From the IMG/VR virus record IMGVR_UViG_2821904334_000002: a stretch of 64,000 nucleotides of DNA, one strand, 5' to 3'. The number at the start of each line of letters is the position of its first letter. Positions within the stretch are counted from its first letter, which is position 1. The translations under genes and the position numbers were made by a program. Source of the stretch: an uncultured virus (IMG/VR IMGVR_UViG_2821904334_000002). Taxonomy: Duplodnaviria; Heunggongvirae; Uroviricota; Caudoviricetes. The notes under the pieces were generated by a model. That model was given only the letters and a program-made list of their open reading frames with translations. It had not been told where the DNA came from and ran no database searches. Positions 38,348 to 61,451 of the stretch are shown one piece after another.

Positions 38348-38376
38348 TTGACAAATGAATGAATTTATGGTATAAT
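38348..38376 (+). promoter_or_regulatory. sigma-A promoter heading the transfer operon
   Basis: TTGACAAATGAATGAATTTATGGTATAAT. Confidence 0.85.
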
Positions 38377-38671
38377 AGTAGTATGAGTTGTAGGAAAGAT
38401 TTGGTAGACTCATAGGTAAAACACTATATACGTTTAAAGTAGCTAGATGAGGTAGTATTAGTTAATAACTTGTTTGGCGTAGCAGAACAGATATATAGTG
38501 TTGTAAGTGTTTAAGGAGTATATAGTGTTAAAGTAAAGATAACCTTAATAAACACAGTCCTGTCTTTTATATTACACCTTGAGATATAAGAGACACATAG
38601 GGCAATGGTCGTGAGACTAATCTGAACCGATAGTAGGTGATAGACATAGAAAATCAAGGTGGTGTAAGTAA

Positions 38672-41600
38672 TTGTTTAAGAAGATACGATATAAGAAACA
38701 AAAGAAATTGGATAAACTATCAGCGGAAAACGATATAGTTTTTAATCCAACTTCGAGAAAACAAAAGAGACATGGTATAAGAAACAAGTTAGTGTTCAGC
38801 GTATTGTCATTGTCATTATTTTTACCTATGCTAGAGCCATTAACTGCATTTGCCGACCCCACAACGGGAGGGCAAACTCAGCAACCCCAAACTACCACAC
38901 CTCAAGACCCGAATTCAGGTGGTGGACAACCTCAACAACCAAATGGTGGAGGTCAGCAACCACAACAGCCGGGCGGTAACGGTACTGGTACAGGAGAAAA
39001 CTCAAATGATGCTCGTAAAAACAATGTAACCGTAGGTAAGATGGCTACATTAGGGGTATCGAGTGAGCAAGGTTATAAAGCTGATATGAGCAGTTTATCA
39101 GGGAATGAGTTAAGAACTTTAGGTGTATTTATCTCAAACTATTATGTTCCGTTTAGCACCCAAGTGGGTAACGTAAAAGATGAGAAAGACTCAAAAGAAG
39201 TCCAAGATAGTATCGTAAAAGCGTTGACTGAAACGAATGCATTCGAAAAAGGTATTGCTGAAAAGATATCTAAAGTTGTAACGAATGCAAGTAAACAGAG
39301 TGTTCAACCTTTATACTTTGCACAATCGAAGGATGGAGAGAATTTCGAAGCGGTAGACGGTGGTAATGGTAAGAAAGGTAAACATGCTACATTCTACGAA
39401 TTCTTAGACCAAATTAGCGGTTATGCATACAAACGTTCCAATGAGTTGCCTTATCCTGATATCAAAGATGGGGTAGACAAGAATGGCGATAAAATGGTAT
39501 CTGCCTATAAAGGTAGTGTTTGGAATTATGACCCTAACTCTAAGAAAAACGAAGGTGCATTATATTGGGGTAGTGGAGACAAGGTAGACAAGAGTCATAT
39601 CATGTTTAACTGGAATCCAACTAGTAGTGAAGGTGGAGGTCAAACCGCTTCTCAAACGGTAATGGCTGAAATTTATAAATACTTAGACCCTGAAAATAGT
39701 GTTGGTACTTCATTCTTAGACTACACGGAAAAAGAACGTGGTAAAGGTTCTAAAGGTGAAACAGTTACTAAGATGTTAGAGGAAGAGAAGTTTAAGAAAG
39801 ACTCATCAATTGAAGCTATCTATAAACGCTCAATGTACGACTGGAAAATGTATGTGGATGCTATCGGTAATATCTTAGTAGACACAGGTAAGCGTCAGTA
39901 TGTTGTAGTTCCTGCCGCAATGAACCCTTTCATCTTCAAGAAGAAAGAAACAGATGGCGGTGGTAAAGAGTTAGACTTCGGACGTGCAGTTCCTATCAAT
40001 AACTTCGTTTCATTAGCATTAGCTAGTAAAGGAAACCTTGTAACTGGTAAGCCTACGCAACATACAGCGTATTTCAATTTAGGAAACATCTATGATAAGT
40101 TTTCTAAAGATACAAAGTATAAGCAACCGGCATTATATAAATTCCCTGGCTCAAAAGATGTAGACTGGACAGAGAAACAGAGTTGGTCAGATACAGGTAC
40201 AACTTTATCTGAGGGTTTATTAGACTCATTAACTACACAGTTTGCAATAAATAGCTATGGTGTAAAAGGAGATAAAGATTGGGGTAAGTGGTTAAAACGT
40301 ACTACTGAAAGTTTCTCTGTAAACAAAGGTAATGATATCCAAAGTTATGACCACGATAAACTTACAAAAGAGAAAACTTTCCCATTCTCATTCAACACAA
40401 ATGAGTTAAATGGTAACGATGCAATCTACGCCCCACGTAGTGGTTTAAATTCAAAACCCGGTCATTTCATCATCGGAGACTTAGTAGCCTTTGATAACTT
40501 GGGTGCATTAAATACAACTACTACACAACCCGCTCAACCACAAGAAGGTCAGCAACAAGGTGGAGACCAAGCACAACAGCAACAACCACAACAAACTCCA
40601 TCGGCTGATACAAGTAGTGATGGTAAGCCTTTAACGTTAGATTCTTACAAGAAGAACTATAAAGCAATTGCTGATAAAGGTCATGAGGTTATCAAACGTA
40701 CTCCTAATGCATTATGGGATAAGGATGGTAAACCTTTAATAGACTATAAAGATATTAGTTCTGACGGTGCTTTCGGTGATAAACTTTCACCTAAAATCAA
40801 CGAAGTAAGTGTAGCGAAAAACCAAATCGCACGAGATTATGGTGCTAACTTATTCGTAACGTATATGTTTGCGGCACTTGGAGGTAAAGAAGGGGTAGAC
40901 AAGGTTGGGTTCGAAATTGGATTCACTAGACTACCTACTTTCGATGGAAACCTAGCTTTAGAAGGTGCAGTAACAGAAGCGGATAAGAAAGCAGAAAAAG
41001 AAGCAAACGTAGACGAGTTAATGAATATGGCTTACTACTTCTTACATCCAACTGAAGGTATTTCTTACTTCTCACGTTGGGCTAAGACTAAAATCGGTGC
41101 TTTCTTTGTTGGTTGGCACAATGACATGACTGGTGCAAGTAACGCTCAAAACACAACTGGTTATACTAGGTATATAGGTTTTAACGGATTTACAACTATG
41201 CCTTCCTTATCAGACATGCAATGGACAGACTGGATGGTGAAAAGCTATCTAGACTGGGGTATCTATTTAATCATTTTCGTGGTAGTTATCATGATATTCT
41301 ATGTGGCTATCGGTGAAATAAGTATACAACGGGCAATATTGGGTGTCGGTATATTCTCCTTATGTTTATACCTACCACCAATAGCGATAAACTCTAGTGT
41401 AGAATTTACAAACTCTGTGAGTAACTCAATTTACGGTAAGAAGTTCTTATACTGGGGTATTGTTCAGCAACAAACGTATGCGAAGAAAATAGACGAAGTT
41501 GCGAAGAAAGGTGAAGAAGGTAAGTCAGACGATTATACAATCGGACTTATGAGATTACAGGGTGAAAACAATAAAGGTCTTTATGCAGATAATACCTCTA

Positions 41601-44182
41601 TTGGACGAACTGTAACTCTTAAATGGATGGCTCCGAAAAAGGATAACTATTTATACCAAATTGAACAAGAAATTAAAGGTTCAACTGGTAATATGAGTCC
41701 TATGTTCCAACGAGTTCTCAATAACACTTTAGCAGGTAATTTAAGTGGAGAACGTTATGTAGATTCAAACGAAGCGTTGTATTTATACAGAACATACACG
41801 GATATCGGTAACTATGCTCGTTATTACTACGGTAACTTAATGGGTGATAAAGTTTACGATACAGGCGCAGTGAATCATGATATTGGAGACACAAGTGCAA
41901 GTATGGGTAACGTAAATATGACAAGACAGTATGAGTCTTACATGCAAGGAACGAAGGAGAATTCTTTAACGGAACGTAAAGAGAAAGGGTTCATCAACGA
42001 TGAACAAGATGCTATTCATGGTGCTTCAACAGATAAAACGAAAGTGAAACGTCTGTATGCTCCATTATCTAGTGAACCTGTAGCTAAATCTTCTCAACAA
42101 AGAATTAGTAAAGTAAACGTAGGTGATGAAGTTGGTTTACGAAAAGAATACTTCAATACAACTGTTCGTAACTTCAATAACCACGGTCAATCTCTACAGG
42201 AACAGATAGCAGGTGGCTCTAGTGCAACATCTGAAAACCTAGCGAGTACGGCAAGTTTCGCATTGTTTACAGAGAGTCCTTTCTATTACTTCTCATGGTT
42301 CTTATATGATAATGGTATGAAGTTTGAATCAGGTAAACATGATACTTTCAGAAACTTAATGATGAAAGATAACGATTCATTCTTCTATAACTATAAGATT
42401 AAGAAAGAATCTTCGGGGTATGGAGAGTTAAAAGACTATATGGACATGGGTTCTATGTTCCATACAGTTATTCCATACTTACGAGAAGTAAACAAACCGT
42501 TAAAAGAATGGTCATCTATCTATGGTACAAAACCTTATCCTGAGATTCCAACTAAGGAAGAAGATTTTGCAAACCAAGGTGACAAGAATTCAGAAGAGTA
42601 TTATAAGTATTGGTTCAATATTAGTCTTGCAAGGTTATTTAACACATATACTCCTTGGGTAGACGCAATGTACGATACAGACTACGCTAAACCTGAGAAT
42701 ATCACGTATGGTGGTAAAAAGCAAACAATCATCGACCCTATTAACCCTAAGTCATATGAAATTAGACCAATGGTATTCAGTGAGTCAGAAATGGCTTACT
42801 ACGGTTTAAAAGATTATAACTTAACTACGGTTGAGAGTAAAATTATTAAAGTACAACGTCAAACACGTAATGACTTACTACGTTTGATGAATTACTATAA
42901 TTTCGATGATAATGTATTGAATCAAACAGCTTCAATGATTATGACTTTCAACTTTAATAAAGAATTCTCACAAGAAAACTTTATTACAGAAAGTTTCGTT
43001 CAATACCCACAAAGCTTTGAATTGAAAAACTTCTCGTATGATGCTTACCTACGTCTAATCTTAGCACAAACTACAGGTGAGACGATTACAGGTGATGATG
43101 GGAAACTATCAATCTATGATAGAGTAGTAGAGAAATCTAGTATTCTAACTGGTATCTTACTAGTGTTGGGTGATATCGTTGCAATTTATGGTATTCCAAC
43201 TATGAAGTTCGTATTCTTAGTTTTAGTGTTTGTATTATCAGTCGTGACGATATTCGTTAAGGCTTTAAGGGTAGAGATATCCTTTAGAAGAGTAGTTTGG
43301 CAAGCATTAGCGAAACCTTTAATACAATTTTGTGGTGTTACACTAGGTCATTCGCTAGTAATTTCATTCTTTATGTCAGAAGGTTTAACAGATGTAACTG
43401 GTAAGACTACCTACTCAATCGCATTAGGAGACCCAGTTATGACATTAGTAGTATTACTATTAATCAACATCGTAACCTTAGTTCTTTACTCATTCATCGT
43501 AATGGGACTTGTAAGAAGCTTAATTGTATACGGTAAACTTGCAGGTACGATTGTTGGGGGTATTGTTGCTTCAGCAGGAACATTCGCATCAGCTACCGCA
43601 GGTAAAGTTACAGGTAGCGTAAACGATAAGATGTTTGGATATGGTGGTTCAGAAGCAAACGGTAAATCCGCCCCATCTTCTACAAGCGCTCAAGCCGACC
43701 CTGAGACAAGAGGTTCTAGAAACGTAGAGCCTGAGTTATCAGTACAGGAAGACATGAGATATCGTAAAGCAAACGAGGAAGCTTATGGTTCAAAAGAGCG
43801 TCCTAAAGACAATACGAATGTAGAAGATATGATTAATAGGGGTAAAGAGAACTTCAAAGAATCTGAAAGAGAACGATATAAAGAACAAAGAAATTACTCA
43901 AATGACTTAAATGAGTATGACTTGAACGACATTGCAGAGAGTAGAAAACATACTCATAATCACACTCATAACCACGAGCATAACTATCAAGGTTCTGCCG
44001 ATGGCAGAGGTCGTGTTCCTGAGACTGAGTCATTAGATGAATTAGCGCAGAATAGAAGGGAAACTCAAACGAGTGATTTACAAAAACCTCATTCTAGCTC
44101 TAGAACTGATGCACAAAGAGAATTAGAACGCAAGAAAGCAGAAGCAGATGAAGTGAAAAAGAAATACAATCTAGACGACTAA
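38672..44182 (+). CDS. very large exported/polytopic membrane protein of the transfer locus (candidate channel component)
   Basis: 1836 aa; signal-like N-terminus; Q/P/G linkers; central TMs and a C-terminal cluster of about 4-5 TMs; first gene of the operon containing VirB4- and FtsK-like ATPases. Confidence 0.75.
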   Translation: MFKKIRYKKQKKLDKLSAENDIVFNPTSRKQKRHGIRNKLVFSVLSLSLFLPMLEPLTAFADPTTGGQTQQPQTTTPQDPNSGGGQPQQPNGGGQQPQQPGGNGTGTGENSNDARKNNVTVGKMATLGVSSEQGYKADMSSLSGNELRTLGVFISNYYVPFSTQVGNVKDEKDSKEVQDSIVKALTETNAFEKGIAEKISKVVTNASKQSVQPLYFAQSKDGENFEAVDGGNGKKGKHATFYEFLDQISGYAYKRSNELPYPDIKDGVDKNGDKMVSAYKGSVWNYDPNSKKNEGALYWGSGDKVDKSHIMFNWNPTSSEGGGQTASQTVMAEIYKYLDPENSVGTSFLDYTEKERGKGSKGETVTKMLEEEKFKKDSSIEAIYKRSMYDWKMYVDAIGNILVDTGKRQYVVVPAAMNPFIFKKKETDGGGKELDFGRAVPINNFVSLALASKGNLVTGKPTQHTAYFNLGNIYDKFSKDTKYKQPALYKFPGSKDVDWTEKQSWSDTGTTLSEGLLDSLTTQFAINSYGVKGDKDWGKWLKRTTESFSVNKGNDIQSYDHDKLTKEKTFPFSFNTNELNGNDAIYAPRSGLNSKPGHFIIGDLVAFDNLGALNTTTTQPAQPQEGQQQGGDQAQQQQPQQTPSADTSSDGKPLTLDSYKKNYKAIADKGHEVIKRTPNALWDKDGKPLIDYKDISSDGAFGDKLSPKINEVSVAKNQIARDYGANLFVTYMFAALGGKEGVDKVGFEIGFTRLPTFDGNLALEGAVTEADKKAEKEANVDELMNMAYYFLHPTEGISYFSRWAKTKIGAFFVGWHNDMTGASNAQNTTGYTRYIGFNGFTTMPSLSDMQWTDWMVKSYLDWGIYLIIFVVVIMIFYVAIGEISIQRAILGVGIFSLCLYLPPIAINSSVEFTNSVSNSIYGKKFLYWGIVQQQTYAKKIDEVAKKGEEGKSDDYTIGLMRLQGENNKGLYADNTSIGRTVTLKWMAPKKDNYLYQIEQEIKGSTGNMSPMFQRVLNNTLAGNLSGERYVDSNEALYLYRTYTDIGNYARYYYGNLMGDKVYDTGAVNHDIGDTSASMGNVNMTRQYESYMQGTKENSLTERKEKGFINDEQDAIHGASTDKTKVKRLYAPLSSEPVAKSSQQRISKVNVGDEVGLRKEYFNTTVRNFNNHGQSLQEQIAGGSSATSENLASTASFALFTESPFYYFSWFLYDNGMKFESGKHDTFRNLMMKDNDSFFYNYKIKKESSGYGELKDYMDMGSMFHTVIPYLREVNKPLKEWSSIYGTKPYPEIPTKEEDFANQGDKNSEEYYKYWFNISLARLFNTYTPWVDAMYDTDYAKPENITYGGKKQTIIDPINPKSYEIRPMVFSESEMAYYGLKDYNLTTVESKIIKVQRQTRNDLLRLMNYYNFDDNVLNQTASMIMTFNFNKEFSQENFITESFVQYPQSFELKNFSYDAYLRLILAQTTGETITGDDGKLSIYDRVVEKSSILTGILLVLGDIVAIYGIPTMKFVFLVLVFVLSVVTIFVKALRVEISFRRVVWQALAKPLIQFCGVTLGHSLVISFFMSEGLTDVTGKTTYSIALGDPVMTLVVLLLINIVTLVLYSFIVMGLVRSLIVYGKLAGTIVGGIVASAGTFASATAGKVTGSVNDKMFGYGGSEANGKSAPSSTSAQADPETRGSRNVEPELSVQEDMRYRKANEEAYGSKERPKDNTNVEDMINRGKENFKESERERYKEQRNYSNDLNEYDLNDIAESRKHTHNHTHNHEHNYQGSADGRGRVPETESLDELAQNRRETQTSDLQKPHSSSRTDAQRELERKKAEADEVKKKYNLDD

Positions 44183-44198: not shown

Positions 44199-46331
44199 TT
44201 GATTGCTCTCGTGGTTGGTTTTATTCTTCCTTTGTTAGTTTGGATAGTTACATTACCTTTAAAGTTCGCATTGTATTTAGCTGAAAAATCGTTAGACGGT
44301 TCTAAAAGCTTCCTAACTAAAAAGTATAAGCAAATAAGTTCTAAGGAAAAAGATTATTTCCAAAAGAATGCAGGGAAAGGTAGCAAACTCGTAAGGTCAA
44401 CCGTTAAGGTTGGCTTTACTGCTACTAAGGTAGGTTTAAACGTAATGGTCAAGTCCATGAAACTTTTAGTAAAAGTAATCAGATGGACGATTCGAGTTTT
44501 AATTTGGCTTACGACTTTAGTATCTTTAGCCTACACTCTCCTTATCTTTGGCGCACTTGCGGCTATAATCGCCATAATCGCTTCTGTACAAACACTAGAC
44601 AAGAGTGGTGGTAATACAGACAGCGCAACACCGAATCAACAAGGTGGTGGCGGTGCAACTGGTATGGCAGACTACTTCTCCATTGATTGGGGACAAGATT
44701 TCAGTAAGCAACTGGATAAGATTGAAGCCGAGAAAGGGGTAGAAGCTAGGAACTGGACTGAGTTTACGATTATAGCAATGAATACAATGCAGAAAACCAA
44801 GAAAGACGGCAAAGCACAAATTGTCGTTGCAGGTTTCTTAAATGGGTTAAAAGCAGTAGAGACGGAACAAAAGTCTTTAACAAGTAAACCTCACTTAGCG
44901 AAACAAATGGTTAGATACGCACCCGGTGGAAACCTAGATACACCATTACAGTTTGATAATACACATTGGCATGAACTTTCACCATACTATAACGACTTAA
45001 AGTCAGAACGTGGACCGACTGGTTCAGCTTATTACTATCCAGACGGATTTTACGGTATCTCACAAAAGTTTAGTAAAGCAGGGGTAGAGGGATTCTTACC
45101 AAAACGTACTACACCGATTTACGAAAGAGCATTTAAAGACTTAGGTGTTGAAATGACTCCTGATAAGTTAAACTGGGTACGTTATGTTGGTAACATTACA
45201 AATCAATACAATGCAGTATTCCTTGAGAAAGGAAACTGGGTTCCGGGTCTAACCGCTGAACAATCAAACGATACAGTTTATGTAAACGCATTGATACTAA
45301 TCAAGTTTGGTGAAATGTATGGTTATAGTGTAAATGAGAAAACTGTTAACCTTTCTAAGTCAATGTATAAAGGAATGATTGGAGACGAGTATCAGAAATG
45401 GTTCTTAGATAAAGGTAAAATGATACAAGGTGCATACGGTATGATTGGTGGACATAAAAACTATCCTGCCGATATTAAGAACGGTCAAAGTTATGGTGTT
45501 ATCTCACCTGACGGACAAGCGCAACAAGGTACATTATTCTCTTATCTAAAAAGTCAGATGCCACCAAACATTCAACAAAACGTAGACAATAGTAGTGGTT
45601 TTAAAACATATAATGCATCTAGGGCGCACTATATGAGGGCTAGATATGATTTAACCGCTTTACTAACAGGGGTATACGATGTATTTTGGGCATCAAACGC
45701 CTTAGGCGTTACACCGCAACAGACTCAACAACCACAACAACCAAATGGTGGAGGTCAAACGAATCAATCATCAGCAATTGGTGATAAAATCGTAGCCCAA
45801 GCTAAGAAATACGCAGAAGACACAAGTGCTAGTCGTATAACTTATAGTTATGCAGGTATAGGTACTACACAAGACTGTTCTTCATTTGTAAACGGTATTT
45901 TACGTGAGTTGGGGTATGCGATTGATGGGAAAACATTAACTCCTGAGCCATTAGCAAACGGTAATTTCAACTATGTAAGGAATACAAGCCAAATGGTAGA
46001 CGCTGTTAGAAAGAAACCTGAGGTATTAGTTAAGTTAGACGGATATACTGGTACACAAGGTATTCCACGTTCAGTACTTGAACCTATCTTACAGCCAGGA
46101 GACATCCTATTAGCAGGTGACAGTGAGCGTAACCATACTGCAATTTATGTTGGTAGAAACTCAAAAGGTGATTATGTAACTATCGAATCCAAAACTAGTT
46201 ATCCACATCAATTCAGTAGTCATAGTGATGCAGAACTAACACAAGGGAAGTACGGTTTCGGATATGATAGAATCAGAGAAGGAAATACAAAATACAAGTA
46301 TTTAATTCGTATGGGTAATGTAATCAAGTAA
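44199..46331 (+). CDS. membrane-anchored cell-wall hydrolase with C-terminal NlpC/P60 domain (VirB1-like; similar to pXO16 TipB as recalled)
   Basis: QDCSSFV...LQPGDILL...NHTAIYVG catalytic Cys/His motifs; N-terminal TMs. Confidence 0.8.
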   Translation: MIALVVGFILPLLVWIVTLPLKFALYLAEKSLDGSKSFLTKKYKQISSKEKDYFQKNAGKGSKLVRSTVKVGFTATKVGLNVMVKSMKLLVKVIRWTIRVLIWLTTLVSLAYTLLIFGALAAIIAIIASVQTLDKSGGNTDSATPNQQGGGGATGMADYFSIDWGQDFSKQLDKIEAEKGVEARNWTEFTIIAMNTMQKTKKDGKAQIVVAGFLNGLKAVETEQKSLTSKPHLAKQMVRYAPGGNLDTPLQFDNTHWHELSPYYNDLKSERGPTGSAYYYPDGFYGISQKFSKAGVEGFLPKRTTPIYERAFKDLGVEMTPDKLNWVRYVGNITNQYNAVFLEKGNWVPGLTAEQSNDTVYVNALILIKFGEMYGYSVNEKTVNLSKSMYKGMIGDEYQKWFLDKGKMIQGAYGMIGGHKNYPADIKNGQSYGVISPDGQAQQGTLFSYLKSQMPPNIQQNVDNSSGFKTYNASRAHYMRARYDLTALLTGVYDVFWASNALGVTPQQTQQPQQPNGGGQTNQSSAIGDKIVAQAKKYAEDTSASRITYSYAGIGTTQDCSSFVNGILRELGYAIDGKTLTPEPLANGNFNYVRNTSQMVDAVRKKPEVLVKLDGYTGTQGIPRSVLEPILQPGDILLAGDSERNHTAIYVGRNSKGDYVTIESKTSYPHQFSSHSDAELTQGKYGFGYDRIREGNTKYKYLIRMGNVIK

Positions 46332-50326: not shown

Positions 50327-50343
50327 AGAGACGGTGATGTAAA

Positions 50344-51603: not shown

Positions 51604-53640
51604 TTGTTCGGGTTTAGTATACCAAACTTTAAAAAGATACTTGGCGAAAAGAAACGTACTGTTAAACCTTGGGGTTTATGGGACACAAGAATCGCTGAGT
51701 TTATGAATAAGAACAAAAGTGAACAAGGACCGACTAGACGGGTTAACTTCTATGCAAACACCAATGCTTTCTATAGCGGTGAGAAGAACGTGTCTTATCT
51801 GTATTTAGTAGACCAACTACCTAGTGAATTAGAATTATCATTCCGTAAAACGATTAGACGAGAGTGTAAAGCAGGGGTACGAATTACCTTCATTACAAAC
51901 TTAAATCGAGACACAATTAACTGGGAAAGTCCTACGAATAAAAATAAACTTCAAACGTGGAAGAACTTAGAGAAAGCTAATGATAGAGAGGTTAGTATCT
52001 ATGAAGCGGCAGGAGAGGTTGGACGTTTAGACTTACAAAACTATAAGAAGAAAAGTATTGAATACCTAATCAATGCAGACTTACGTAGGAAGAGAAAGTT
52101 ATTTAACGTACAAGGTATTATGTTAATTACAGGTGAACGAGGGTTAGCATTCGATGATACGGTTAAATCAGTAGAGTCATCTTGTAAACGTAGTAAAATT
52201 AAGATTAAACGTATAACAGGTAACTTAACGGATTACTTAGAAACGTTCAGTCCTTTCTCATTACGTAAGAATAGTGGGGTAATTAAGCGAACAGGTTCAA
52301 ACGTTATACCTGATGAATTAGTAGCAAGATTAAACTCATATGACCAAGGTACAGTTGGAACAGGTTCGATGTATTGGGGTACTGATATCTATTCTAAGAA
52401 ACCAGTACTAAAAGAGCCAAAAGTAATAGATACTGATGCAGAGAACTGGTTAATTGCGGCTGAGACTGGTGGAGGAAAATCATACTTTGTAAAATCATCT
52501 TGTATTCAGTTACTTGGACGAAACGATATGGTAGGAACAATTAACGATATCGAGGGTGATGAGTATGAAGATTTAGGATACATCATCGCCAACCATAGTA
52601 GTGTTGTTATGTTAGATATCGGTGAGTCAGGTGGTTCTTACTTCGACCCTGTAGAGATATATGAAACAGGTGTAGCAGATTTAGATGAAGAAATGCACTC
52701 ATTATCTATCTCCTTTACAAAGAGTATGTTTAAAACATTAGTAGGAGACAAACTACTTCAAAAGCGTGACTGGGCTGAGACAATCATCGAGAACGGTGTA
52801 GAAGAGTTCTATGATGAATTAGGGGTAGTAAACAGCGATAGCAGAACGTGGAAGAAAACAAAAGGTAAAACTATCTTCGATGTGTATGCAAAGATTAAAA
52901 CATACAAACCACATAAGTTAAATGAAGAGTTTGAAGCGGATAAAGAGTTAGTTATTGCTCAGCTAGAATCAAGACTAGGTAGAAACAGTCAAACAACTGG
53001 TCGATTCAGTAATCGTGTACAATTCGACTCTATCCGTGATGCGAAACTAGTAATTAACTCATTCGGTATGAAAGGTCGTTCAGCTTCTACAGTAAGTGCG
53101 GTAGATATGGCACTAATGCAGTTATACACCGCTTTAATTTCTCATTTACGTTCTGTATTTGCGAAATCAAGAGGTATGTATAACTTTAAGATTTGGGAAG
53201 AGTTCCAACGTTGGGGTGGATTCCCTGGCGCAGAAGAAACACTTAAAACTCCATTATCAGGTGGACGTAAATTAGGTGATATAAACATCATTATCACAAA
53301 CAGACCTTCCGAACTATTAGAAACTGACCGATTCAAAATCTTTGACTCAATCACTACATTTGCAATTGGGGCGGTAGGTGACTCGAAAGTTCGTCATGAA
53401 CTATGTGAACGTCTACAAATGCCATTAATGAAGAAAGAATTGGATTTAATTGAAAGAAACCGTAAGAAATCCGATGATAATACAACAGAGTATGAAGACT
53501 TTGATGCAATCAAAATGAATCCATACGCAAAAGCTTTCCTTGTTGGATTAGAGAGACGTGATTTCTCTATTACGAAAATTGTATTACCTGATAGCTTGTC
53601 TAAAACAAGACTATTCCAAACTGGTGTAAAAGTAGGCTAA
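51604..53640 (+). CDS. virB4: VirB4-like conjugative ATPase
   Basis: NWLIAAETGGGKSYFVK Walker A; INDIEGDEY; FKIWEEFQR Walker B; GRKLG..IIITN. Confidence 0.8.
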   Translation: MFGFSIPNFKKILGEKKRTVKPWGLWDTRIAEFMNKNKSEQGPTRRVNFYANTNAFYSGEKNVSYLYLVDQLPSELELSFRKTIRRECKAGVRITFITNLNRDTINWESPTNKNKLQTWKNLEKANDREVSIYEAAGEVGRLDLQNYKKKSIEYLINADLRRKRKLFNVQGIMLITGERGLAFDDTVKSVESSCKRSKIKIKRITGNLTDYLETFSPFSLRKNSGVIKRTGSNVIPDELVARLNSYDQGTVGTGSMYWGTDIYSKKPVLKEPKVIDTDAENWLIAAETGGGKSYFVKSSCIQLLGRNDMVGTINDIEGDEYEDLGYIIANHSSVVMLDIGESGGSYFDPVEIYETGVADLDEEMHSLSISFTKSMFKTLVGDKLLQKRDWAETIIENGVEEFYDELGVVNSDSRTWKKTKGKTIFDVYAKIKTYKPHKLNEEFEADKELVIAQLESRLGRNSQTTGRFSNRVQFDSIRDAKLVINSFGMKGRSASTVSAVDMALMQLYTALISHLRSVFAKSRGMYNFKIWEEFQRWGGFPGAEETLKTPLSGGRKLGDINIIITNRPSELLETDRFKIFDSITTFAIGAVGDSKVRHELCERLQMPLMKKELDLIERNRKKSDDNTTEYEDFDAIKMNPYAKAFLVGLERRDFSITKIVLPDSLSKTRLFQTGVKVG

Positions 53641-53745: not shown

Positions 53746-54108
53746 GTGCAAGATGTAATACAATTCTTTCAAACAACATTAGGGGTATCATTGCTTATAT
53801 TTTTAGCGTATTTTCCTTTGGTTGATTTTATGAGAAGACTTTATTTATACGAGTTTACCTTATATAACCGATTAGAAAAAGAGTATAAACCAATTATTAA
53901 ATATACAATGGGATTTCAAACGATAGCGTTCATTGTGTTTTATATAGTTGCTCCTTACTTTTCGATTCAGAAGTACATGGTAGATGGTGTAACTTCCTTA
54001 TTAATACTTCCAGTTGTATTTTTCATTCTTACAAACATGGGAATCTTCACAATCTACGGATTGATTCATACAGGAAAACTAAAAGTAACCTTAAAAGATA
54101 AGAAGTAG
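53746..54108 (+). CDS. membrane protein (3 TMs)
   Basis: GAGGTG RBS; hydrophobic segments. Confidence 0.7.
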   Translation: MQDVIQFFQTTLGVSLLIFLAYFPLVDFMRRLYLYEFTLYNRLEKEYKPIIKYTMGFQTIAFIVFYIVAPYFSIQKYMVDGVTSLLILPVVFFILTNMGIFTIYGLIHTGKLKVTLKDKK

Positions 54109-54319: not shown

Positions 54320-54379
54320 GTATACATAGCTTTTAAACTATGTAAGTAAAGTCGTAAGACTATAAGGAGTGGTAATTGG

Positions 54380-55408
54380 ATGTTAAGTGGAATAACAAGT
54401 TGGATTATGGAACACAAGAAAACTACACTTGCAATTGCAGGGGTAGTTATCATTGGTATCATATCCTATAATGCAGTAGCAGACCGACAAGCCCAAAAGG
54501 AAGCTGAGGTTTCAGCAGAGAAAAGCGCAAAGCAAGAAAATGTAAAGTCTGACTTTGACATTGAACAAGAGAAATTAGTTAAGAAACATGGCGCACCAAA
54601 GAAAGGTTTCCGTTGGACAGACGATGGTAAGCTACAGGCAATAGGGGATAAGGGGATGACCAGTGAGGACGTTATTTATGCATATGTTCGTGGTCTATCA
54701 ACCTTAGATTTCTCGAATGCACAGAGATATAGCTATAAGACTGATGTAGTAAAATCATACCAAGGATTCTATGAAGCAGAACAAGATTTTACATACAACA
54801 AGAACTTCCAAAAAGGTATGTATAAACAAGTACTACTAAGTCTTAGACCAAACAAAATTGAAGATACAGCTTTATTCGCTGATTACAAAACTTCAATTAC
54901 AATGAATATCGAGTTATTAGATTTAAGTAACAAAGATTTTTGGTTAAAAGACAAGGATAAAATATTCCAAGACTTGAAAAAGTACAAAGTGAATGAGCGT
55001 GATACAACAAAAATGAAAGATTACCTATTCAACTACGTACTAAGTTACTATTCAGGTGAGAAACCAAAAACTAGAAACGTAAAAGTAAACTTTGTAATGC
55101 AACAAACTATGGATGGTTCATGGTTAGTTACAAATGATGCAGAGTTAGATGCATTAGCGAAGTACCAAGACGGTGAAATCGTAGTAAACCAAATCTTAGA
55201 CCAATTTGAACGTTGGATTGGTAAGTCAAGTGAAGATGTAACTCCTGATGCTAAGATTGAGAACACTGAAATTGGTAATGTGAATGGTAATATTGAGAAT
55301 AAGAAAGATTCAGATAACGTTAACCCTTATAGTAGACCTAACAATGATAATGACAAAATCAATCAAAACGAACCGAAAGACGATGCACCAACTGTCATTG
55401 AAAGGTAA
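54380..55408 (+). CDS. bitopic membrane protein, VirB8/NTF2-like
   Basis: N-terminal TM; SEDVIYAYVRGLSTLDF...VNFVMQQTMDGSWLVTN pattern typical of NTF2-like folds. Confidence 0.6.
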   Translation: MLSGITSWIMEHKKTTLAIAGVVIIGIISYNAVADRQAQKEAEVSAEKSAKQENVKSDFDIEQEKLVKKHGAPKKGFRWTDDGKLQAIGDKGMTSEDVIYAYVRGLSTLDFSNAQRYSYKTDVVKSYQGFYEAEQDFTYNKNFQKGMYKQVLLSLRPNKIEDTALFADYKTSITMNIELLDLSNKDFWLKDKDKIFQDLKKYKVNERDTTKMKDYLFNYVLSYYSGEKPKTRNVKVNFVMQQTMDGSWLVTNDAELDALAKYQDGEIVVNQILDQFERWIGKSSEDVTPDAKIENTEIGNVNGNIENKKDSDNVNPYSRPNNDNDKINQNEPKDDAPTVIER

Positions 55409-55421
55409 GGAGGGGTAGACA

Positions 55422-55580: not shown

Positions 55581-55598
55581 ACAGAAAGGTAGGAAGTT

Positions 55599-55739: not shown

Positions 55740-55789
55740 ACTGAGATAGAGAGTAATAGTTTCAAAGTCTAAGAAAGGAGGGGTATTGT

Positions 55790-58111
55790 ATGAGTTTCGA
55801 TTCACGAAACTTTGTCTCTGACGATGACTTAGCAAAGGAACGTCAAGATAGGCAAGACAGACAAAACCCACCAAGCGTAGAACATGGTCAAGGTGGAGAC
55901 GCCTTTGCTGATTTAAATATAGATGATTTATTCAGCACTCCTTCTCCTTCTTCACCAACTGATAATAACAATTCGTTTAACTCTTTTGGTGATGCACCTC
56001 CAATGGGGCAACCCTTAGGTGGTGGAAATGACCCTTTCTTGAACCCAATTGGAGGGATACCTCCGATGGGAGGTATGAATCAACCACCTACTCCATTCGG
56101 TCAACAACCTAAGACTGATGAAGAGAAAATAATGGATGCAGGAAAGAAAAGTTGGTCATTCATTAAAGACTTAGGTAGTGGGTTTCATGATTTAAAGTCA
56201 ACACCTACAAACTGGTCTATGACTGGTAGGAACTTAGTTAAAATGTCAGCAATCGCTTTTGGTTTATCCTTTGCAACCATGATGATATTCAAGAAAGACG
56301 TAATGGACTACATGATGGGTAGCGGTTTTACCGCAATAGCAGGGGTATTATTACTGTCTTTCAATAACGATAAAGCACGATTGATAAAAGGTACAGACGG
56401 AGAAGAGGAACAGCCCTTTGATATTAATAAAATAGAGGGAGACCCTTTACCACAAGATGATATCTTTGCGAGTGCATTTGCAACTGAGCCTAACATGTTA
56501 GTAAACTTAGATAAACCACCATTGGAAGATGAACAACCTTTTGCAACCTTTGAAGATGAGGAAGATGAAGGAGAAGAAGATGATGATGGATTTGATGATG
56601 GTTGGGATGAGTTTGATGAGGAAGAAGACGAGGAATTCGATGAGGAAGACGAAGAGATAACAGAATTTGTTACAGTAGATGAAGCACCTTCTGATATAGC
56701 AACGGTATTAACCGAAGTAGACCAAGTACCCGCAGGTATGTATACAAGACATTTCTTATATGAAAACTATAAGAGAGCCTTAACAAGCATTACACCATCA
56801 TACAGTGAAACAATCTTCTTAGACGAAGATGAAGATGATGAATGGGATGCATATAGTAGACTAATTCGAGAAGTACAACAGCAAATGGATTTAGAATCAG
56901 GGGTAGACGATTACGAAAGTGATTTATCTGAAATCCTGTCTGTAGAGAAACGTCTATTAACGGTTTATGTAGAAGCAACAAGACCAAAGAAACTTAAAAA
57001 TAGTAAGATTGATGAGTTCAACCGAGAACTATCAAATATTGTTTCAAGGGTAAAAGGAAGACTGGTAGAGGGAAGATACTCTCAAACAATAGCAGTTGGT
57101 AACACAATTTACATTACAATTTTTACGGGTGAAACAGCAAGTGTATCTGTTAAAGACGCTATTATAAAAGAGCAAGATTTCTTCTTAAATACAGACAACC
57201 GTATTCCAGTTGTAATGGGCTTTAACGAATTAGGAGACACAATTAAAATTGATTTATACGATGTGGAATCTATCCTAACAGCAGGTATGCCAAGGGGTGG
57301 TAAAACATTCTCTGTTAAAACAGTAATGTCTCAAATGGTTCAATTTTGTAGTCCATCAGAAGTTACTTTCTACTTTGCAGACGTAAAAGGTAAAGTATCT
57401 GACTGGTATCAGTTCAGAACACCTCATGTTAGAAGGTTCGAAAGTGACCCACAACAAATCATAACCATGTTAACTCACTTAACAGACGTAGAAGGACCGA
57501 GACGTGAGAAGATAATGGCAGAAGTAGGGGTAACAAACTTAAAAGACTATAATCAAGTTCCACACGATATTGAACTACCTATGATTTATGTTGTTATAGA
57601 TGAAATGGCAACTCTAATGCAGAAGTTAACAGACAAGGATAAAAAGTTATTCCACGCAAGAATGGTCGATTTAGTAACGAAAATGCCAGGGTTTGGACTT
57701 AGATTATGGGGTATTCCTCACTTAGTTAAGAACGATATCATCCCTAAAACAGTATCAGACTTAATACCTTGTAAGATATCTGTTAAAGGGGATGAGAGTC
57801 ACGTTGAAGCTACAACTGGTGCAAAACCAAGTAAGTTTAAGTTTAAGTTATCTCATGTAGGAGATTGTGCGGTAAACATGCCAGCTATCTCTAGTGACGT
57901 ATTCTTTATGCACTCATTTATCTTAGCTAAAAACGGTACTGGGGTAACTCGTGTATTAGATTATCAATCGAAGTTATGGGAGAAACTAGAACCTGATTCT
58001 GTAAAAGGTTCACTATCCTATCAACTAGACAATACAAATAGACAAAAAGTAGTATTAGATAAGTTAGACTTACCTAGTGAGCCTGTATTCGGTAAGGATG
58101 GGATGTACTAG
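55790..58111 (+). CDS. FtsK/SpoIIIE-family DNA translocase (two TMs, acidic linker, motor domain)
   Basis: IPVVMG..DL..SILTAGMPRGGKT Walker A; YFADVKG; IYVVIDEMATL Walker B; GDC; no evident C-terminal gamma domain. Confidence 0.88.
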   Translation: MSFDSRNFVSDDDLAKERQDRQDRQNPPSVEHGQGGDAFADLNIDDLFSTPSPSSPTDNNNSFNSFGDAPPMGQPLGGGNDPFLNPIGGIPPMGGMNQPPTPFGQQPKTDEEKIMDAGKKSWSFIKDLGSGFHDLKSTPTNWSMTGRNLVKMSAIAFGLSFATMMIFKKDVMDYMMGSGFTAIAGVLLLSFNNDKARLIKGTDGEEEQPFDINKIEGDPLPQDDIFASAFATEPNMLVNLDKPPLEDEQPFATFEDEEDEGEEDDDGFDDGWDEFDEEEDEEFDEEDEEITEFVTVDEAPSDIATVLTEVDQVPAGMYTRHFLYENYKRALTSITPSYSETIFLDEDEDDEWDAYSRLIREVQQQMDLESGVDDYESDLSEILSVEKRLLTVYVEATRPKKLKNSKIDEFNRELSNIVSRVKGRLVEGRYSQTIAVGNTIYITIFTGETASVSVKDAIIKEQDFFLNTDNRIPVVMGFNELGDTIKIDLYDVESILTAGMPRGGKTFSVKTVMSQMVQFCSPSEVTFYFADVKGKVSDWYQFRTPHVRRFESDPQQIITMLTHLTDVEGPRREKIMAEVGVTNLKDYNQVPHDIELPMIYVVIDEMATLMQKLTDKDKKLFHARMVDLVTKMPGFGLRLWGIPHLVKNDIIPKTVSDLIPCKISVKGDESHVEATTGAKPSKFKFKLSHVGDCAVNMPAISSDVFFMHSFILAKNGTGVTRVLDYQSKLWEKLEPDSVKGSLSYQLDNTNRQKVVLDKLDLPSEPVFGKDGMY

Positions 58112-58143
58112 GGGTAGTCAGTGATTTTAGACCTTAAAAGAAG

Positions 58144-59421
58144 GTGTTTTATTTGCGAGTAATGTTAGAAAGTATATCCAATGAAGACTTATATTTTGCC
58201 TTACAAAAGTATGGTGAGAAGTTAGCAGACAATAAAAAAGATTATAGTCAAGTAAAATCGGAAGAGTTTGAGAGGTTACAGCTTCTTAGACCTCTTCCAG
58301 TATTAGATGAACGGAGTCTGATATCCGAAGAGGTAGAAGAAGATTATGAAATACAATCAAAAGCTACAGACTCACTAGAGTATATTACATTAGAATCTAT
58401 TCTACCGCATGAAATTACAAGTCATATTGAGAATGTCTTTGAAAAGCTAAACAGTAGTGTAAACTTAGATTTAGTTTCAGAAGATGAACCAATTGATTAT
58501 ACAAAAGAAGAACCTCCAGTTGTCATTATAGACGAAGAAGAGGAAGAGGAAATCATAGATGATGAAATTATAGACGATGAAGTCATTGAAGATGAAATAG
58601 AAGATGAAGAATTAGAAGATGAGGAAGAGGAAGAACTACTAGAAGATGACGATGAGGAAGAATTGTTAGACGATGACGAGGAAGAAGACCTTGAAGACGA
58701 AGAAGACGACTTTGAGGATGAGGACGAAGAAGAGGAATTCTTAGAAGACGAAGAGGAAGATGACGAGATTATAGAGGAAGAGGAAGAAGACGATTTCGAG
58801 GATGAAGAAGACCTTGAAGACGAAGAAGATTTAGAAGAGGAAGACGAGGAAGAGGAAGAAGAATTCCACGAACCTGAGCCTGAACCTATAATCGAAGAAG
58901 TTAAACTAGTAAAACCAATCATTACACCTCCAATCGTAGAAAAGAAAGAACCTATTCAATCTTATGAACCAGTGTTTAAAAAGGATGCACCAGTCGTTAA
59001 AAAGACTGAACCTGAATTTAAGAAGGATACACCATATGTATCACCTTCAAAACCTGAGTTGAAGAAAGAGGAACCTGTTCAAAGTCAATTTGACATTCCA
59101 AATAATCCAAGACCGAGTCGTAGAGCTAGTTCAAACTCAAGAAGAATGAATAGCATAGGCGGAAGTGAAGAAGACTTCATTAAAAATATAATGAACGGTA
59201 CAAATTCCGAAGTAACTCCACCTTCAACGAATGTCAATCCATCTTCTCCAAAAGTAGAAGAAGTAAAAGTAGAAAACTTACCTCCAGACCCAATTTCGTA
59301 TTTAAGACTTCATCCGAGGTCGAAGGAAAACGAGGTCAAAAAGTTATATCCACCTAAAGTAGTAGATGAGTATATTAATAGCGGTATCATAACGAGGGCT
59401 AGAGGGGTATTATTAATTTAA
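58144..59421 (+). CDS. hyperacidic protein with small C-terminal winged-helix-like domain
   Basis: ~120-aa D/E tract; P-rich linker; C-terminus PISYLRLHPRSKENEVKKLY..VVDEYINSGIITRARGVLLI. Confidence 0.7.
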   Translation: MFYLRVMLESISNEDLYFALQKYGEKLADNKKDYSQVKSEEFERLQLLRPLPVLDERSLISEEVEEDYEIQSKATDSLEYITLESILPHEITSHIENVFEKLNSSVNLDLVSEDEPIDYTKEEPPVVIIDEEEEEEIIDDEIIDDEVIEDEIEDEELEDEEEEELLEDDDEEELLDDDEEEDLEDEEDDFEDEDEEEEFLEDEEEDDEIIEEEEEDDFEDEEDLEDEEDLEEEDEEEEEEFHEPEPEPIIEEVKLVKPIITPPIVEKKEPIQSYEPVFKKDAPVVKKTEPEFKKDTPYVSPSKPELKKEEPVQSQFDIPNNPRPSRRASSNSRRMNSIGGSEEDFIKNIMNGTNSEVTPPSTNVNPSSPKVEEVKVENLPPDPISYLRLHPRSKENEVKKLYPPKVVDEYINSGIITRARGVLLI

Positions 59422-59464
59422 GTCCAGTAAACCTGTAAGAAAGTGATGAAAGAAGGGGTATTTC

Positions 59465-59809
59465 GTGTCAATTAAAGTAACAGCAGTAAGTTTTAGTTTT
59501 GCAAAAGCAATGGATGAAAACAGAAACGGTTCATGTGGGTTCTGTAGGGTTATCTTAAATGGGGTAATCACGATAAACAGGGTAAGGGTTATCAAGAAAG
59601 AATCAGACTATATTGTACAAATGCCTGTAACACCTTGTAGGAATGTAGAAGAAAGTGCAATCAAGTCAGTTGTACAGATAACAGATAGAGAGACGATGTC
59701 GGAAATAGAAACAGCAGTTTTAAAGGAGTATAACGAGATATTAAAGAATACAAAAGTCTATACGAAGAAGCCCTCTAGAAATAACAATCAAACTAAAACA
59801 TACAAGTAG
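59465..59809 (+). CDS. spoVG: SpoVG-family protein
   Basis: IKVTAV..GFCRVILNGVITINRVRVI..IVQMP..IETAVLKEY matches the SpoVG pattern. Confidence 0.75.
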   Translation: MSIKVTAVSFSFAKAMDENRNGSCGFCRVILNGVITINRVRVIKKESDYIVQMPVTPCRNVEESAIKSVVQITDRETMSEIETAVLKEYNEILKNTKVYTKKPSRNNNQTKTYK

Positions 59810-59818
59810 AGAAGTTAA

Positions 59819-59846
59819 AGCCGTTGTGTAGAACAACGGCTATTTT
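59819..59846 (+). terminator. intrinsic terminator
   Basis: AGCCGTTGT...ACAACGGCT followed by ATTTT. Confidence 0.7.
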
Positions 59847-59864
59847 AATTAGGAGGAAGGTTAA

Positions 59865-61451
59865 ATGGCGAAACGAACGGTTAAATACTATAATGATAGA
59901 TTACAAGGCTCAATGAACGAAGCAGACTGTGATAATTTAGAGCATATTTTAAAAATGAAAGAAGTAAACGGAAGCATTGATTCACTAAAACGTACAATCT
60001 ATGCTTTATCAGACGAAGAAGTAGAAAGAATACAACGAGAAAAGAAAGTAGACCCGACTATTTCAAAAGAAAAAGGTACATTAGCTGATAACCAAACACT
60101 AGGAACAGCTTATATGTATTATTCAGGAGACTGTATTATTGGAGATAGCGTAGGTTTAGGTAAAACTGTACAGGTATCAGCCCTTATCAATTTAAAGAGA
60201 AAGCAAAACCATGATAACGGTATCCCTTTCCGCTACCTATTCTTAACAGAGAAAACACTAGTAGAACAGGCAGTTAGAGAGTTAACTCGTTTTACAAGAC
60301 AGTATGTACATGAGTTAACTGGTGAAAAGAAAGAGAACGTAAAATGGCGTGAAGAAATGTGGGATGGTCATAAAGGCGGTATTGTTGCGCCACACTCTTT
60401 ACTGAAACAGCAAGTCTTTCATTCATGGTTAGACGATATGTTAGACGAATATGGGTTAGCAGAAGGAAACTACTATTTCGATTATCTGTTTATAGATGAA
60501 TCGAGTTTATTAGGTAGTACAAACACACAACTGTATAAGTATGCTGAATTACTAAGAAGATATGCAAAACACGTTATCTTAATGAATGCAACACCATTCG
60601 AAAGTAACTTAGAAACATTCTATGGTCAATTAAACTTCTTAGACCCAAACCTTATGCCAGCTAAGACTACATTTAAGAAGATATACTACGTATTAGAGTA
60701 TGGACACGGTCAGAAGAAATGGGGTGTTCATAACGGTAAGTATAAGAATGCACATGTGTTTAGGCATCAAGTGGGGTATTTCTATTTCTATCAAACTCGT
60801 AAACAATTAGGTGCGGAAATGAAGAATACGACCTATGAGATTATAACAAGGGAAATGACAAAGGAACAAACAGAGTTAATGAAGCTAACTGATATGTATG
60901 GGTATGTGTATGATTGTCCTACCTATCTAGACGCTGATATTCCATTTGATGAAGAGAATGTACCGAAGTTAGACATGTTAGAAGAGTTACTAGAAAACAA
61001 AATCAAGGTAGGAGAACAGGTATTAATCTTCTGTCATTACAAAGAATCACAAAGAAGACTACAAGATTGGTTTGAGAACCGTGGTTATGATACTGAAATC
61101 TTAAATGGTGATATTACAAACCGAGAAGAACGAAACAGTATTGTAAATGCATTTAAAGAGAAAGAGTACGAAGTATTAATAACTTCTGTTCAGAAGGGGT
61201 TAAACTTTGGAGACGTACCACATTTAATCTTCTATTCATTCAGTACAAACCCAAACAAAATGATTCAAATGGAAGGTCGTGTTACTCGTTCATTCCATAT
61301 TGAGAATAAAAACTTCTATCTATTAGCGCATGAAGGTAGGGAGTTAAACAAACTGAAGAAAGATGTTAAAAAGACCTTACAATCAAGTCGTGAGTTCTCT
61401 AGTGATGATTTAAGTGCAGTAGTTGAAATGTTACTAAACCTTATGGATTAA
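59865..61451 (+). CDS. SNF2-like SF2 helicase/ATPase
   Basis: IIGDSVGLGKT; FIDESS; MNATP; VLIFC; KGLN; QMEGRVTR. Confidence 0.88.
   Translation: MAKRTVKYYNDRLQGSMNEADCDNLEHILKMKEVNGSIDSLKRTIYALSDEEVERIQREKKVDPTISKEKGTLADNQTLGTAYMYYSGDCIIGDSVGLGKTVQVSALINLKRKQNHDNGIPFRYLFLTEKTLVEQAVRELTRFTRQYVHELTGEKKENVKWREEMWDGHKGGIVAPHSLLKQQVFHSWLDDMLDEYGLAEGNYYFDYLFIDESSLLGSTNTQLYKYAELLRRYAKHVILMNATPFESNLETFYGQLNFLDPNLMPAKTTFKKIYYVLEYGHGQKKWGVHNGKYKNAHVFRHQVGYFYFYQTRKQLGAEMKNTTYEIITREMTKEQTELMKLTDMYGYVYDCPTYLDADIPFDEENVPKLDMLEELLENKIKVGEQVLIFCHYKESQRRLQDWFENRGYDTEILNGDITNREERNSIVNAFKEKEYEVLITSVQKGLNFGDVPHLIFYSFSTNPNKMIQMEGRVTRSFHIENKNFYLLAHEGRELNKLKKDVKKTLQSSREFSSDDLSAVVEMLLNLMD

Follow-up and report, generated by a model that had tools for sequence, protein, structure and literature searches.

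The tip system (named for transfer of israelensis plasmid) of pXO16, a plasmid of Bacillus thuringiensis sv. israelensis, was described in 2018. It is a 25-kb locus of 16 coding sequences (CDSs), including two ATPases and the cell wall hydrolase TipB; it was delimited experimentally as a conjugation locus and is reported to be needed for transfer, and the accessible text of a 2022 review states that its relaxase and oriT "remain unidentified" (PMC9673590). According to the same text, pXO16 transfer is completed in ∼3.5 to 4 min, and the plasmid mobilizes plasmids without oriT or mob as well as stretches of chromosome 791 kb or more in length (PMC9673590). The group that studies pXO16 itself likens it to pCW3 of Clostridium perfringens (PMC6199540). 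Here, we analyzed a 64,000-nucleotide stretch of DNA deposited as an uncultured virus (IMG/VR record IMGVR_UViG_2821904334_000002; hereafter, the window), in which positions 38348 to 61451 hold a block of genes for a predicted DNA transfer apparatus. We give a probability of about 0.8 to the reading that this block is the tip orthologue of a diverged pXO16-like megaplasmid and represents a Gram-positive conjugative type IV secretion system (T4SS) with a coupling ATPase of the TcpA-family type. The gene set is real but already known: the system is pXO16 tip.

Nucleotide and protein comparisons both place the window beside pXO16. Three queries covering 58.2 of its 64 kb (positions 1 to 25000, 25001 to 50000, and 50000 to 58200) each retrieved an identical set of 10 PLSDB records and nothing else; all 10 are B. 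thuringiensis plasmids of ∼350 kb, and the identity was 90.2%, 94.6%, and 94.1%, respectively. One of these, pBTHD789-1 (NC_018516), is pXO16 (PMC6199540); it aligned by BLASTN at 95.0% identity over positions 30000 to 54114 and at 91.8% over positions 54168 to 63997. Gene order in the block is the same in the two, as is the promoter described below, and 13 of the 14 block open reading frames (ORFs) compared were 92.2 to 98.9% identical to the pXO16 proteins over their full length. For the 14th, at 58144 to 59421, the BLASTP alignment was limited to the last 173 amino acids (87% identity), its acidic half remaining unaligned. The pXO16 record has 16 annotated CDSs over the stretch matching the block, a count to be read with the caution that the published tip borders may differ, and ∼130 bp of pXO16 around an annotated 72-amino-acid CDS has no counterpart at window positions 54114 to 54168. 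An earlier sequence-only reading of the window had guessed at a relationship to pXO16; this collinearity at high identity proves the guess correct, and its description of an atypical T4SS-like locus in which an FtsK-type ATPase takes the place of the coupling protein is borne out by gene content.

Tip copies previously found among 1,168 plasmids were near-identical only, with at least 99.8% protein identity (PMC9673590), and near-identical copies of pXO16 are the only ones mentioned in the accessible text of the pXO16 reviews (PMC9673590). Because the window copy differs from pXO16 at ∼5 to 8% of nucleotides, we regard it as a diverged relative of tip. Matches to its VirB4-like protein in Bacillus cereus (89% identity) and Bacillus toyonensis (77%) make the lineage somewhat wider.

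All ORFs of at least 100 amino acids between 38.3 and 61.5 kb lie on the + strand, confirming a co-oriented block of ∼23 kb; from 38348 to 61451 there are 14 such ORFs and two short ones (Table 1). Ten of the 15 block products scanned had no Pfam match at an E value of ≤0.01. The promoter-like site has the identical sequence in pXO16, and the 412-bp intergenic stretch that includes the leader is 98% identical to pXO16, compared with ∼95% for the flanking DNA. A single strong promoter would appear to drive transcription of the entire block. Three TATATAGTGTT-type inverted-repeat arms in the leader (38417 to 38431, 38492 to 38505, and 38518 to 38529) are a possible operator or oriT-like site. 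The predicted fold of the leader RNA was not striking (z score, −1.98), and neither the window nor the leader yielded a structured RNA or an Rfam family. Two adjacent paralogues lie immediately upstream of the promoter (36455 to 37333 and 37454 to 38263) and are ∼29% identical over 199 residues.

Table 1. Features of the tip-type block and one upstream gene, in window coordinates (aa, amino acids)
Feature	Coordinates	Strand	Remarks
ArdC-like protein, outside the block, upstream	7442..8458	+	PF08401, E 5.7e-6; PF06114 (M78 peptidase), E 2.6e-6; both above cut-offs
Promoter-like site, TTGACA-17-TATAAT with TG extension, sigma-A type	38348..38376	+	12/12 matches; starts at first coordinate of the block
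Leader, promoter to first gene, 296 nt	38383..38671	+	
1836-aa polytopic membrane protein	38672..44182	+	98.9% identity to pXO16 product
710-aa membrane-anchored putative cell wall hydrolase	44199..46331	+	Weak C-terminal NlpC/P60; 98.3% identity to pXO16
Two single-pass proteins, 200 and 207 aa	46585..47820	+	Hydropathy
448-aa protein, 2 or 3 N-terminal membrane segments	47876..49222	+	Hydropathy
306-aa soluble protein	49406..50326	+	N-terminal 135 residues conserved in two relatives
412-aa soluble protein	50344..51582	+	Receiver-like N-domain, long helix, MinD/ParA/NifH-like C-domain
678-aa VirB4-like (HerA/DUF87-type) ATPase	51604..53640	+	Walker A AETGGGKS at residue 286
120-aa polytopic membrane protein	53746..54108	+	
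342-aa bitopic protein, NTF2-like domain (VirB8/TcpC/TraM-like)	54380..55408	+	AlphaFold2 model
Short hydrophobic ORFs of 52 aa and 46 aa	55422..55739	+	52-aa one corresponds to an annotated pXO16 CDS
773-aa FtsK/SpoIIIE-type ATPase	55790..58111	+	PF01580, E 2.5e-12, above cut-off
425-aa acidic, Pro/Lys-rich low-complexity protein	58144..59421	+	No family match
114-aa SpoVG-like protein	59465..59809	+	PF04026, E 1.1e-8
528-aa SNF2-family helicase	59865..61451	+	Kept in module of 4 distant relatives

The FtsK-type ATPase, whose gene lies 2.1 kb downstream of the VirB4-like gene, has one motor domain, which scores above the PF01580 cut-off. From the N terminus it consists of a low-complexity region, one or more hydrophobic segments at residues ∼149 to 194 (a membrane anchor at 149 to 167 by hydropathy, with a second hydrophobic stretch after it), an acidic linker, and the motor domain, with Walker A GMPRGGKT at residue 499 and a VVIDE sequence aligned to the Walker B region of the 6o1w chain. 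The best match to a PDB sequence was to that chain, "DNA translocase coupling protein" (E value, 5e-8; 34.8 bits; residues 474 to 618), which we take to be TcpA of pCW3; FtsK (1.3e-5; 26.8 bits) and EccC (8e-5; 24.2 bits) scored lower. No FtsK gamma domain was found in the whole protein (Pfam; E value of ≤0.01), and the last 84 residues gave no Pfam match at an E value of ≤10. By its build, we infer that the 773-amino-acid protein is a TcpA-family coupling protein. The structure of TcpA is known, and the accessible text of a 2025 T4SS review treats TcpA-type coupling proteins as a distinct family (PMC12857230).

The sequence-only reading had also named a VirB4-like ATPase; NCBIfam models VirB4_plasma (E value, 3e-13) and conju_CD1110 (1e-8) matched the product, both far below their curated cut-offs. 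The 678-amino-acid protein had no match to a Pfam VirB4 family at an E value of ≤0.01, and many of its relatives carry PF01935 (HerA/DUF87). It is a remote branch of the VirB4/HerA type, and its VirB4-like role follows from context. Two genes upstream, the 306-amino-acid protein precedes the 412-amino-acid protein, for which an AlphaFold2 model built from 14 sequences reached a predicted local distance difference test score (pLDDT) of 77.5 and a predicted template modeling score (pTM) of 0.48. In structural comparison with VIA-align, its C-domain matched NifH (8tc3_B; Z score, 10.6; root mean square deviation [rmsd], 3.4; 170 residues aligned) and MinD (1g3r_A; Z score, 10.2), and its N-domain matched the KdpE receiver (4kfc_A; Z score, 10.0). 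The protein has no Walker A motif by regular expression, and for the model Foldseek returned nothing at an E value of ≤1e-3 and the ESM Atlas no usable match. In more distant relatives, a recognizable ParA/MinD domain is encoded two genes upstream of the VirB4-like one.

Plural VirB8-like proteins had been proposed as well. At the level of fold this held for the 342-amino-acid product of ORF 54380 to 55408, and for that ORF only. The AlphaFold2 model (61 aligned sequences, 60 of them picked from 127 representatives; pLDDT, 87.0; pTM, 0.70) shows an N-terminal helix over the hydrophobic segment at residues 15 to 35 followed by an NTF2-like domain. VIA-align matches included TraM of pIP501 (4ec6_A; Z score, 8.4; rmsd, 3.0; 96 residues aligned), 3ub1_A ("NTF2 like protein involved in plasmid conjugation"; Z score, 8.3), and the VirB8 homologue CagV (6iqt_A; Z score, 7.5); the top match was a generic NTF2 fold (3gwr_B; Z score, 9.3), with TraM and CagV among many generic ones. 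Foldseek returned nothing at an E value of ≤1e-3, its best match being NTF2-like 3b7c at 4e-3. The predicted fold, the topology, and the context of the product fit the VirB8 class.

The giant membrane protein of the sequence-only reading has hydrophobic segments at residues ∼40 to 59, 855 to 907, and 1485 to 1635 by hydropathy and no Pfam, NCBIfam, or PHROG match; residues ∼720 to 1740 are conserved at 25 to 38% identity in eight distant loci, and its size, topology, and position suggest a VirB6-like channel protein. An NlpC/P60 hydrolase had likewise been recognized, and PF00877 does match the 710-amino-acid protein, weakly (E value, 7e-4; 20 bits versus a cut-off of 23), so the call depends mainly on orthology to pXO16. 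This protein had no PDB sequence match and is, judging by sequence and position, the probable orthologue of TipB; relatives have, close to this end of the module, genes with CHAP or lysozyme-like domains. Elsewhere in the window, ORF 9457 to 12021 encodes an 854-amino-acid protein that combines SH3 domains with a C39-like peptidase domain and may be another enzyme acting on the wall. The 200- and 207-amino-acid ORFs had no family match and no BLASTP match in the distant relatives, apart from a weak spanin-like PHROG match of the latter. The 448-amino-acid protein accompanies the VirB4-like gene, with BLASTP matches in 9 of the 10 relatives' loci searched.

The block thus has, like pCW3 tcp, an FtsK/SpoIIIE-type ATPase (TcpA), a VirB4-like ATPase (TcpF), a VirB8-like NTF2 protein (TcpC), a candidate VirB6-like protein (TcpH), and a hydrolase (TcpG); unlike the block, pCW3 encodes a MOBM relaxase, TcpM, and has a mapped 150-bp oriT with TcpK (PMC6137059, accessible text). 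Between TcpA and the FtsK-like protein the ATPase core alone aligns (residues 474 to 618). Beyond the pCW3 set, the tip module includes the 1836-amino-acid giant, the MinD-fold protein, SpoVG, and the SNF2 helicase.

ICEBs1 and Tn916 of the Bacillota likewise combine a TcpA-like coupling protein with VirB4, VirB8-like, and hydrolase genes, and in these elements the relaxase gene adjoins the coupling-protein gene. Their relaxase is, unlike anything in the block, of the Rep_trans (MOBT) family (PMC12857230), and the corresponding profile, PF02486, has no match on pXO16. Streptomyces TraB resembles the block in being an FtsK-like hexameric motor that works without a relaxase and transfers chromosomal DNA; it differs in acting without other T4SS subunits, whereas the block has VirB4-, VirB8-, and hydrolase-type genes (PMC12857230, accessible text). 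A further difference from TraB is that single-stranded DNA (ssDNA) is reported for pXO16. In the last 84 residues of the FtsK-like protein, Pfam matched no DNA-reading C-terminal domain. The tra system of pELF-type linear plasmids of Enterococcus faecium, as outlined in the accessible literature, is a minimized Gram-positive machinery whose essential genes encode analogues of VirB4 and VirB6 together with an FtsK/VirD4-type ATPase; these plasmids are linear and belong to another host, and the likeness is one of description only.

The absence of a relaxase and of VirD4, another observation of the sequence-only reading, extended beyond the block and is shared with pXO16. Pfam detected no relaxase or VirD4 family in 63 window ORFs (15 from the block and 48 others), NCBIfam no relaxase in the 15 block ORFs scanned, and a crude regular expression no HUH-type motif in + strand ORFs of at least 120 amino acids. 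As a proxy for the replicon of the window, we searched the closest complete plasmid, the pXO16 record (349,599 bp), in six frames at an E value of ≤1. There were no matches to PF03432 (Relaxase), PF02486, PF01076 (Mob_Pre), PF03389 (MobA_MobL), PF08751 (TrwC), PF07514 (TraI_2), PF13814 (Replic_Relax), or PF02534 (T4SS-DNA_transf, the VirD4 family); PF00589 (Phage_integrase), whose coverage of TcpM is uncertain, also gave none. The positive control, PF01580, gave one match, the expected FtsK-like gene. By class, these searches detected no domain or motif of the HUH relaxases MOBF, MOBP, MOBQ, and MOBV and no domain of MOBT (Rep_trans) or MOBH (TraI_2). A six-frame search of this kind is a loose first look that very remote relaxase members could escape; to judge from these profiles, the nicking enzyme falls outside all nine families tested, which cover relaxases, integrase, and VirD4.

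Two block ORFs were considered as relaxase candidates and set aside: the model of the 412-amino-acid ORF shows receiver-like and MinD/ParA/NifH-like folds, and ORF 58144 to 59421, which adjoins the FtsK-like gene downstream, in the position of the ICEBs1 and Tn916 relaxase genes, is an acidic low-complexity protein without a family match, the first 250 residues being almost pure Glu/Asp/Ile repeats. MOB-suite, via PLSDB, types all 10 matching ∼350-kb records, pBTHD789-1 included, as "non-mobilizable," although in reviews pXO16 figures as efficiently self-transmissible. The same label is attached to 11 Bacillus subtilis-group plasmids of 136 to 216 kb (PLSDB H41 to H51), which encode a DUF87 protein 25 to 27% identical to the VirB4-like ATPase.

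The module recurs well outside this lineage. Among 8,000 candidates scored, 444 were VirB4-like relatives at an E value of ≤1e-3, many of them 43 to 47% identical and on contigs of up to 328 kb. Pattern scans added five loci in species genomes (metagenome-assembled genomes of Clostridia and one Clostridioides difficile contig) and seven further loci on IMG/VR contigs; the module is found at 31 to 41% identity on metagenome contigs of 26 to 268 kb and in Clostridia. An FtsK-like gene lies within 2.5 kb downstream of the VirB4-like gene in each of the eight distant loci whose sequence extends far enough (six recognized by Pfam and two by BLASTP only). BLASTP also recovered the giant protein, the 448- and 412-amino-acid proteins, the NTF2 proteins, and the SNF2 helicase in relatives. 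In nine of the relatives (loci L013 and L015 to L022), the module comprises, besides the giant protein, the VirB4/HerA-like and FtsK-like ATPases, and an NTF2 protein, a variable hydrolase, a protein with two transmembrane segments, and a MinD/ParA-type protein, often with the SNF2 helicase. A Pfam scan of 96 ORFs from the relatives' modules found no relaxase; these were 26 ORFs from L013 and L015 plus 70 of the 91 listed from the other relatives (L019, which nearly duplicates L018, was left out with all its 16 ORFs, as were 5 ORFs on the minus strand), the lists starting at 110 amino acids, so that genes of SpoVG size fall mostly outside the scan. A search with a profile of 25 family members placed VirB4 (4ag5) first among PDB sequences, at an E value of 0.018. 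Deposited phages gave no match to the VirB4-like protein (50,697 records) and no nucleotide match.

The element also carries a strand-polar word. The window has 118 copies of GGGGTA on its + strand (e.g., at 315, 1134, and 63304), about one per 540 bp, and none on its − strand, compared with the 12 to 36 copies expected from Markov models of order 1 to 3. Inside ORFs there are 87 copies, versus 19.4 ± 4.1 (maximum, 35) in 200 synonymous-codon shuffles, a 4- to 5-fold excess that rules out codon usage as the explanation; 57 of the 101 Gly-Val pairs use GGGGTA even though GGG accounts for only 157 of 1,107 Gly codons. The copies fall into the three reading frames 57, 17, and 13 times, and 31 are intergenic. 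The word is no mere ribosome-binding site, as 25 of the 118 copies lie within 15 nucleotides upstream of an ORF start, compared with 286 of 2,000 random positions; nor does it appear to be a host-wide signal, the two strands of 50 kb of the co-resident pBTHD789-2, similar in G+C content, having 3 and 4 copies. Copies are dispersed and not clustered into a repeat locus. GGGGTA is real, under selection, and element specific. It was not mentioned in the accessible text of the pXO16-group reviews, and full-text matches that combine it with "thuringiensis" appeared unrelated by title, among the matches listed.

Across the pXO16 chunks L003 to L009 (317,599 bp), the coding strand has 593 copies and the other strand 3, with no flip in polarity, and L001 has 91 versus 2; the GC skew of the coding strand stays positive in each 10-kb segment around pXO16. 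Four relatives with ∼40% VirB4 identity (L016 to L019), which have only short nucleotide patches in common with the window, show ratios of 25:3, 23:1, 26:2, and 46:0 per 22 kb versus 6 to 11.5 copies expected. The bias is not present in six other relatives. Because all genes lie on one strand, a DNA-level signal and an RNA-level signal are indistinguishable here. This one-strand organization extends to the genes that pXO16 encodes elsewhere, among them DNA polymerase, a DnaB-like helicase, primase, gyrase-like subunits, and ligase; in the window, ORF 32589 to 33881 encodes a DNA polymerase III delta'-like AAA protein, the element thus carrying its own replication genes.

For a tip-type conjugative T4SS, the following mechanism can be proposed. 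The giant polytopic protein would form the membrane channel together with the bitopic protein of NTF2 fold, the hydrolase would open the cell wall, the VirB4-like ATPase would power the channel, and the membrane-anchored, single-domain FtsK-like ATPase would feed DNA into it as a TcpA-family coupling protein. DNA would cross as a single strand, as the pXO16 literature has it, after nicking by an enzyme outside the tested families. The N-terminal domain of ArdC binds ssDNA, and the protein is typical of DNA that enters the recipient single stranded; the ArdC-like gene upstream of the block therefore fits single-strand entry. Orthology, gene content, folds, and the lack of known relaxase families are results of this analysis; for both the transfer role and the single-stranded substrate we draw on the literature, and the roles of individual proteins are predictions. 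According to the accessible text of a review by the pXO16 group, ssDNA transfer has been proved for pXO16 (PMC6199540). An unrecognized pXO16 relaxase would have a precedent, since pCW3 seemed to lack a relaxase until TcpM was found (PMC6137059), and TcpM belongs to a separate relaxase family and has no sequence specificity in vitro (PMC6137059, PMC12857230).

Several points weigh against this reading. The NCBIfam scores of the VirB4-like protein are 48.4 bits versus a cut-off of 590 (VirB4_plasma) and 33.9 versus 325 (CD1110), and the profile match to 4ag5 is remote. The NTF2 fold is widespread, and Z scores of ∼8 are near the VIA-align background. For the FtsK-like protein, 6o1w leads FtsK only modestly in bit score, and the NCBIfam type VII secretion system (T7SS) models EssC and EccC match it at similar E values. 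The conserved SNF2 helicase is a member of a family of double-stranded DNA (dsDNA) translocases. The transfer role and the ssDNA claim come from two reviews of one group, and a site-specific relaxase would not readily account for the mobilization of oriT-less plasmids and of 791 kb or more of chromosome.

The alternative that fares best is the one put forward by the sequence-only reading, a hybrid in which an FtsK-like hexamer pumps dsDNA through or alongside a T4SS-like channel without a relaxase, perhaps oriented by GGGGTA. It would accommodate the lack of any relaxase family found on pXO16, the movement of oriT-less plasmids and chromosomal DNA, and the SNF2 helicase kept in the module, and a double-stranded intermediate has been suggested for TcpA-dependent pCW3 transfer in the accessible text of the 2025 review (PMC12857230). 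GGGGTA, with its 118:0 distribution, its excess over synonymous shuffles, and its polarity in four ∼40%-identity relatives, points the same way, and the part of the claim that concerned the hexamer itself, that it is real and selected, stands. Its supposed fit to a DNA motor is not supported: polarity is confounded with transcription, there is no flip around pXO16 and, unlike the case of the FtsK-orienting polar sequences (KOPS), no convergence on a site; nothing ties the word to the FtsK-like protein, and four relatives (L013, L015, L021, and L022) have an FtsK-like gene without GGGGTA enrichment. Nor was an FtsK gamma or winged helix-turn-helix domain found in the FtsK-like protein. The hybrid is not supported, because ssDNA is reported for pXO16 (PMC6199540), the motor has a TcpA-type build, and its VirB4-, VirB8-, and hydrolase-type partners are foreign to TraB systems; the ArdC-like gene and the late discovery of TcpM in pCW3 speak against it as well. 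We consider it unlikely, and retain it at that level because the ssDNA claim is second-hand, because the idea has also been raised for TcpA, and because pXO16 moves oriT-less plasmids and long chromosomal stretches.

An ordinary relaxase and oriT could instead lie on a part of the replicon beyond the 64 kb that has no pXO16 counterpart, and the cluster of the VirB4-like protein does include a 359,548-bp contig, which exceeds pXO16 by ∼10 kb. However, pXO16 is self-transmissible yet lacks all seven relaxase families tested, so that no extra relaxase is needed, and we hold this explanation to be very improbable. Least credible of all is that the block is a T7SS-like protein secretion device or a phage-derived one and does not transfer DNA: the FtsK-like protein matches EssC/EccC (E values of 5e-11 to 4e-6) and phage FtsK-like PHROGs (1.4e-31), but EssC has several ATPase domains and this protein one, VirB4-like and VirB8-like partners are present, and the phage records noted above lack the VirB4-like protein. 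Relatives on IMG/VR "viral" contigs and the phage-like look of pXO16 remarked in the accessible review text (PMC6199540) would suit a phage origin, against which stand the reported experiments that delimited tip as a locus for conjugation (PMC9673590).

A broader proposal goes beyond the conjugative tip-type T4SS that we favor. The module might mark a wide, unnamed clade of Bacillota elements that are very large, have their genes on one strand, and transfer DNA without a site-specific relaxase, GGGGTA being a cis signal in one subclade. There, GGGGTA would load or orient the FtsK-like motor, the SNF2 helicase, the SpoVG-like protein, or the element's own primase. We regard this proposal as doubtful; were it true, relaxase-free transfer would explain how pXO16 moves oriT-less DNA.

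By itself, the finding is a rediscovery of the tip system and adds a diverged copy and little more. Since all 10 matching records are labeled non-mobilizable, tip-type elements are invisible to standard typing, which misses elements of this type in plasmid surveys. The distant relatives define a conserved core, the 412-amino-acid protein and the acidic ORF have been set aside as relaxase candidates, and GGGGTA offers specialists a concrete cis element to test. The finding bears on how pXO16 achieves its fast, oriT-less mobilization.

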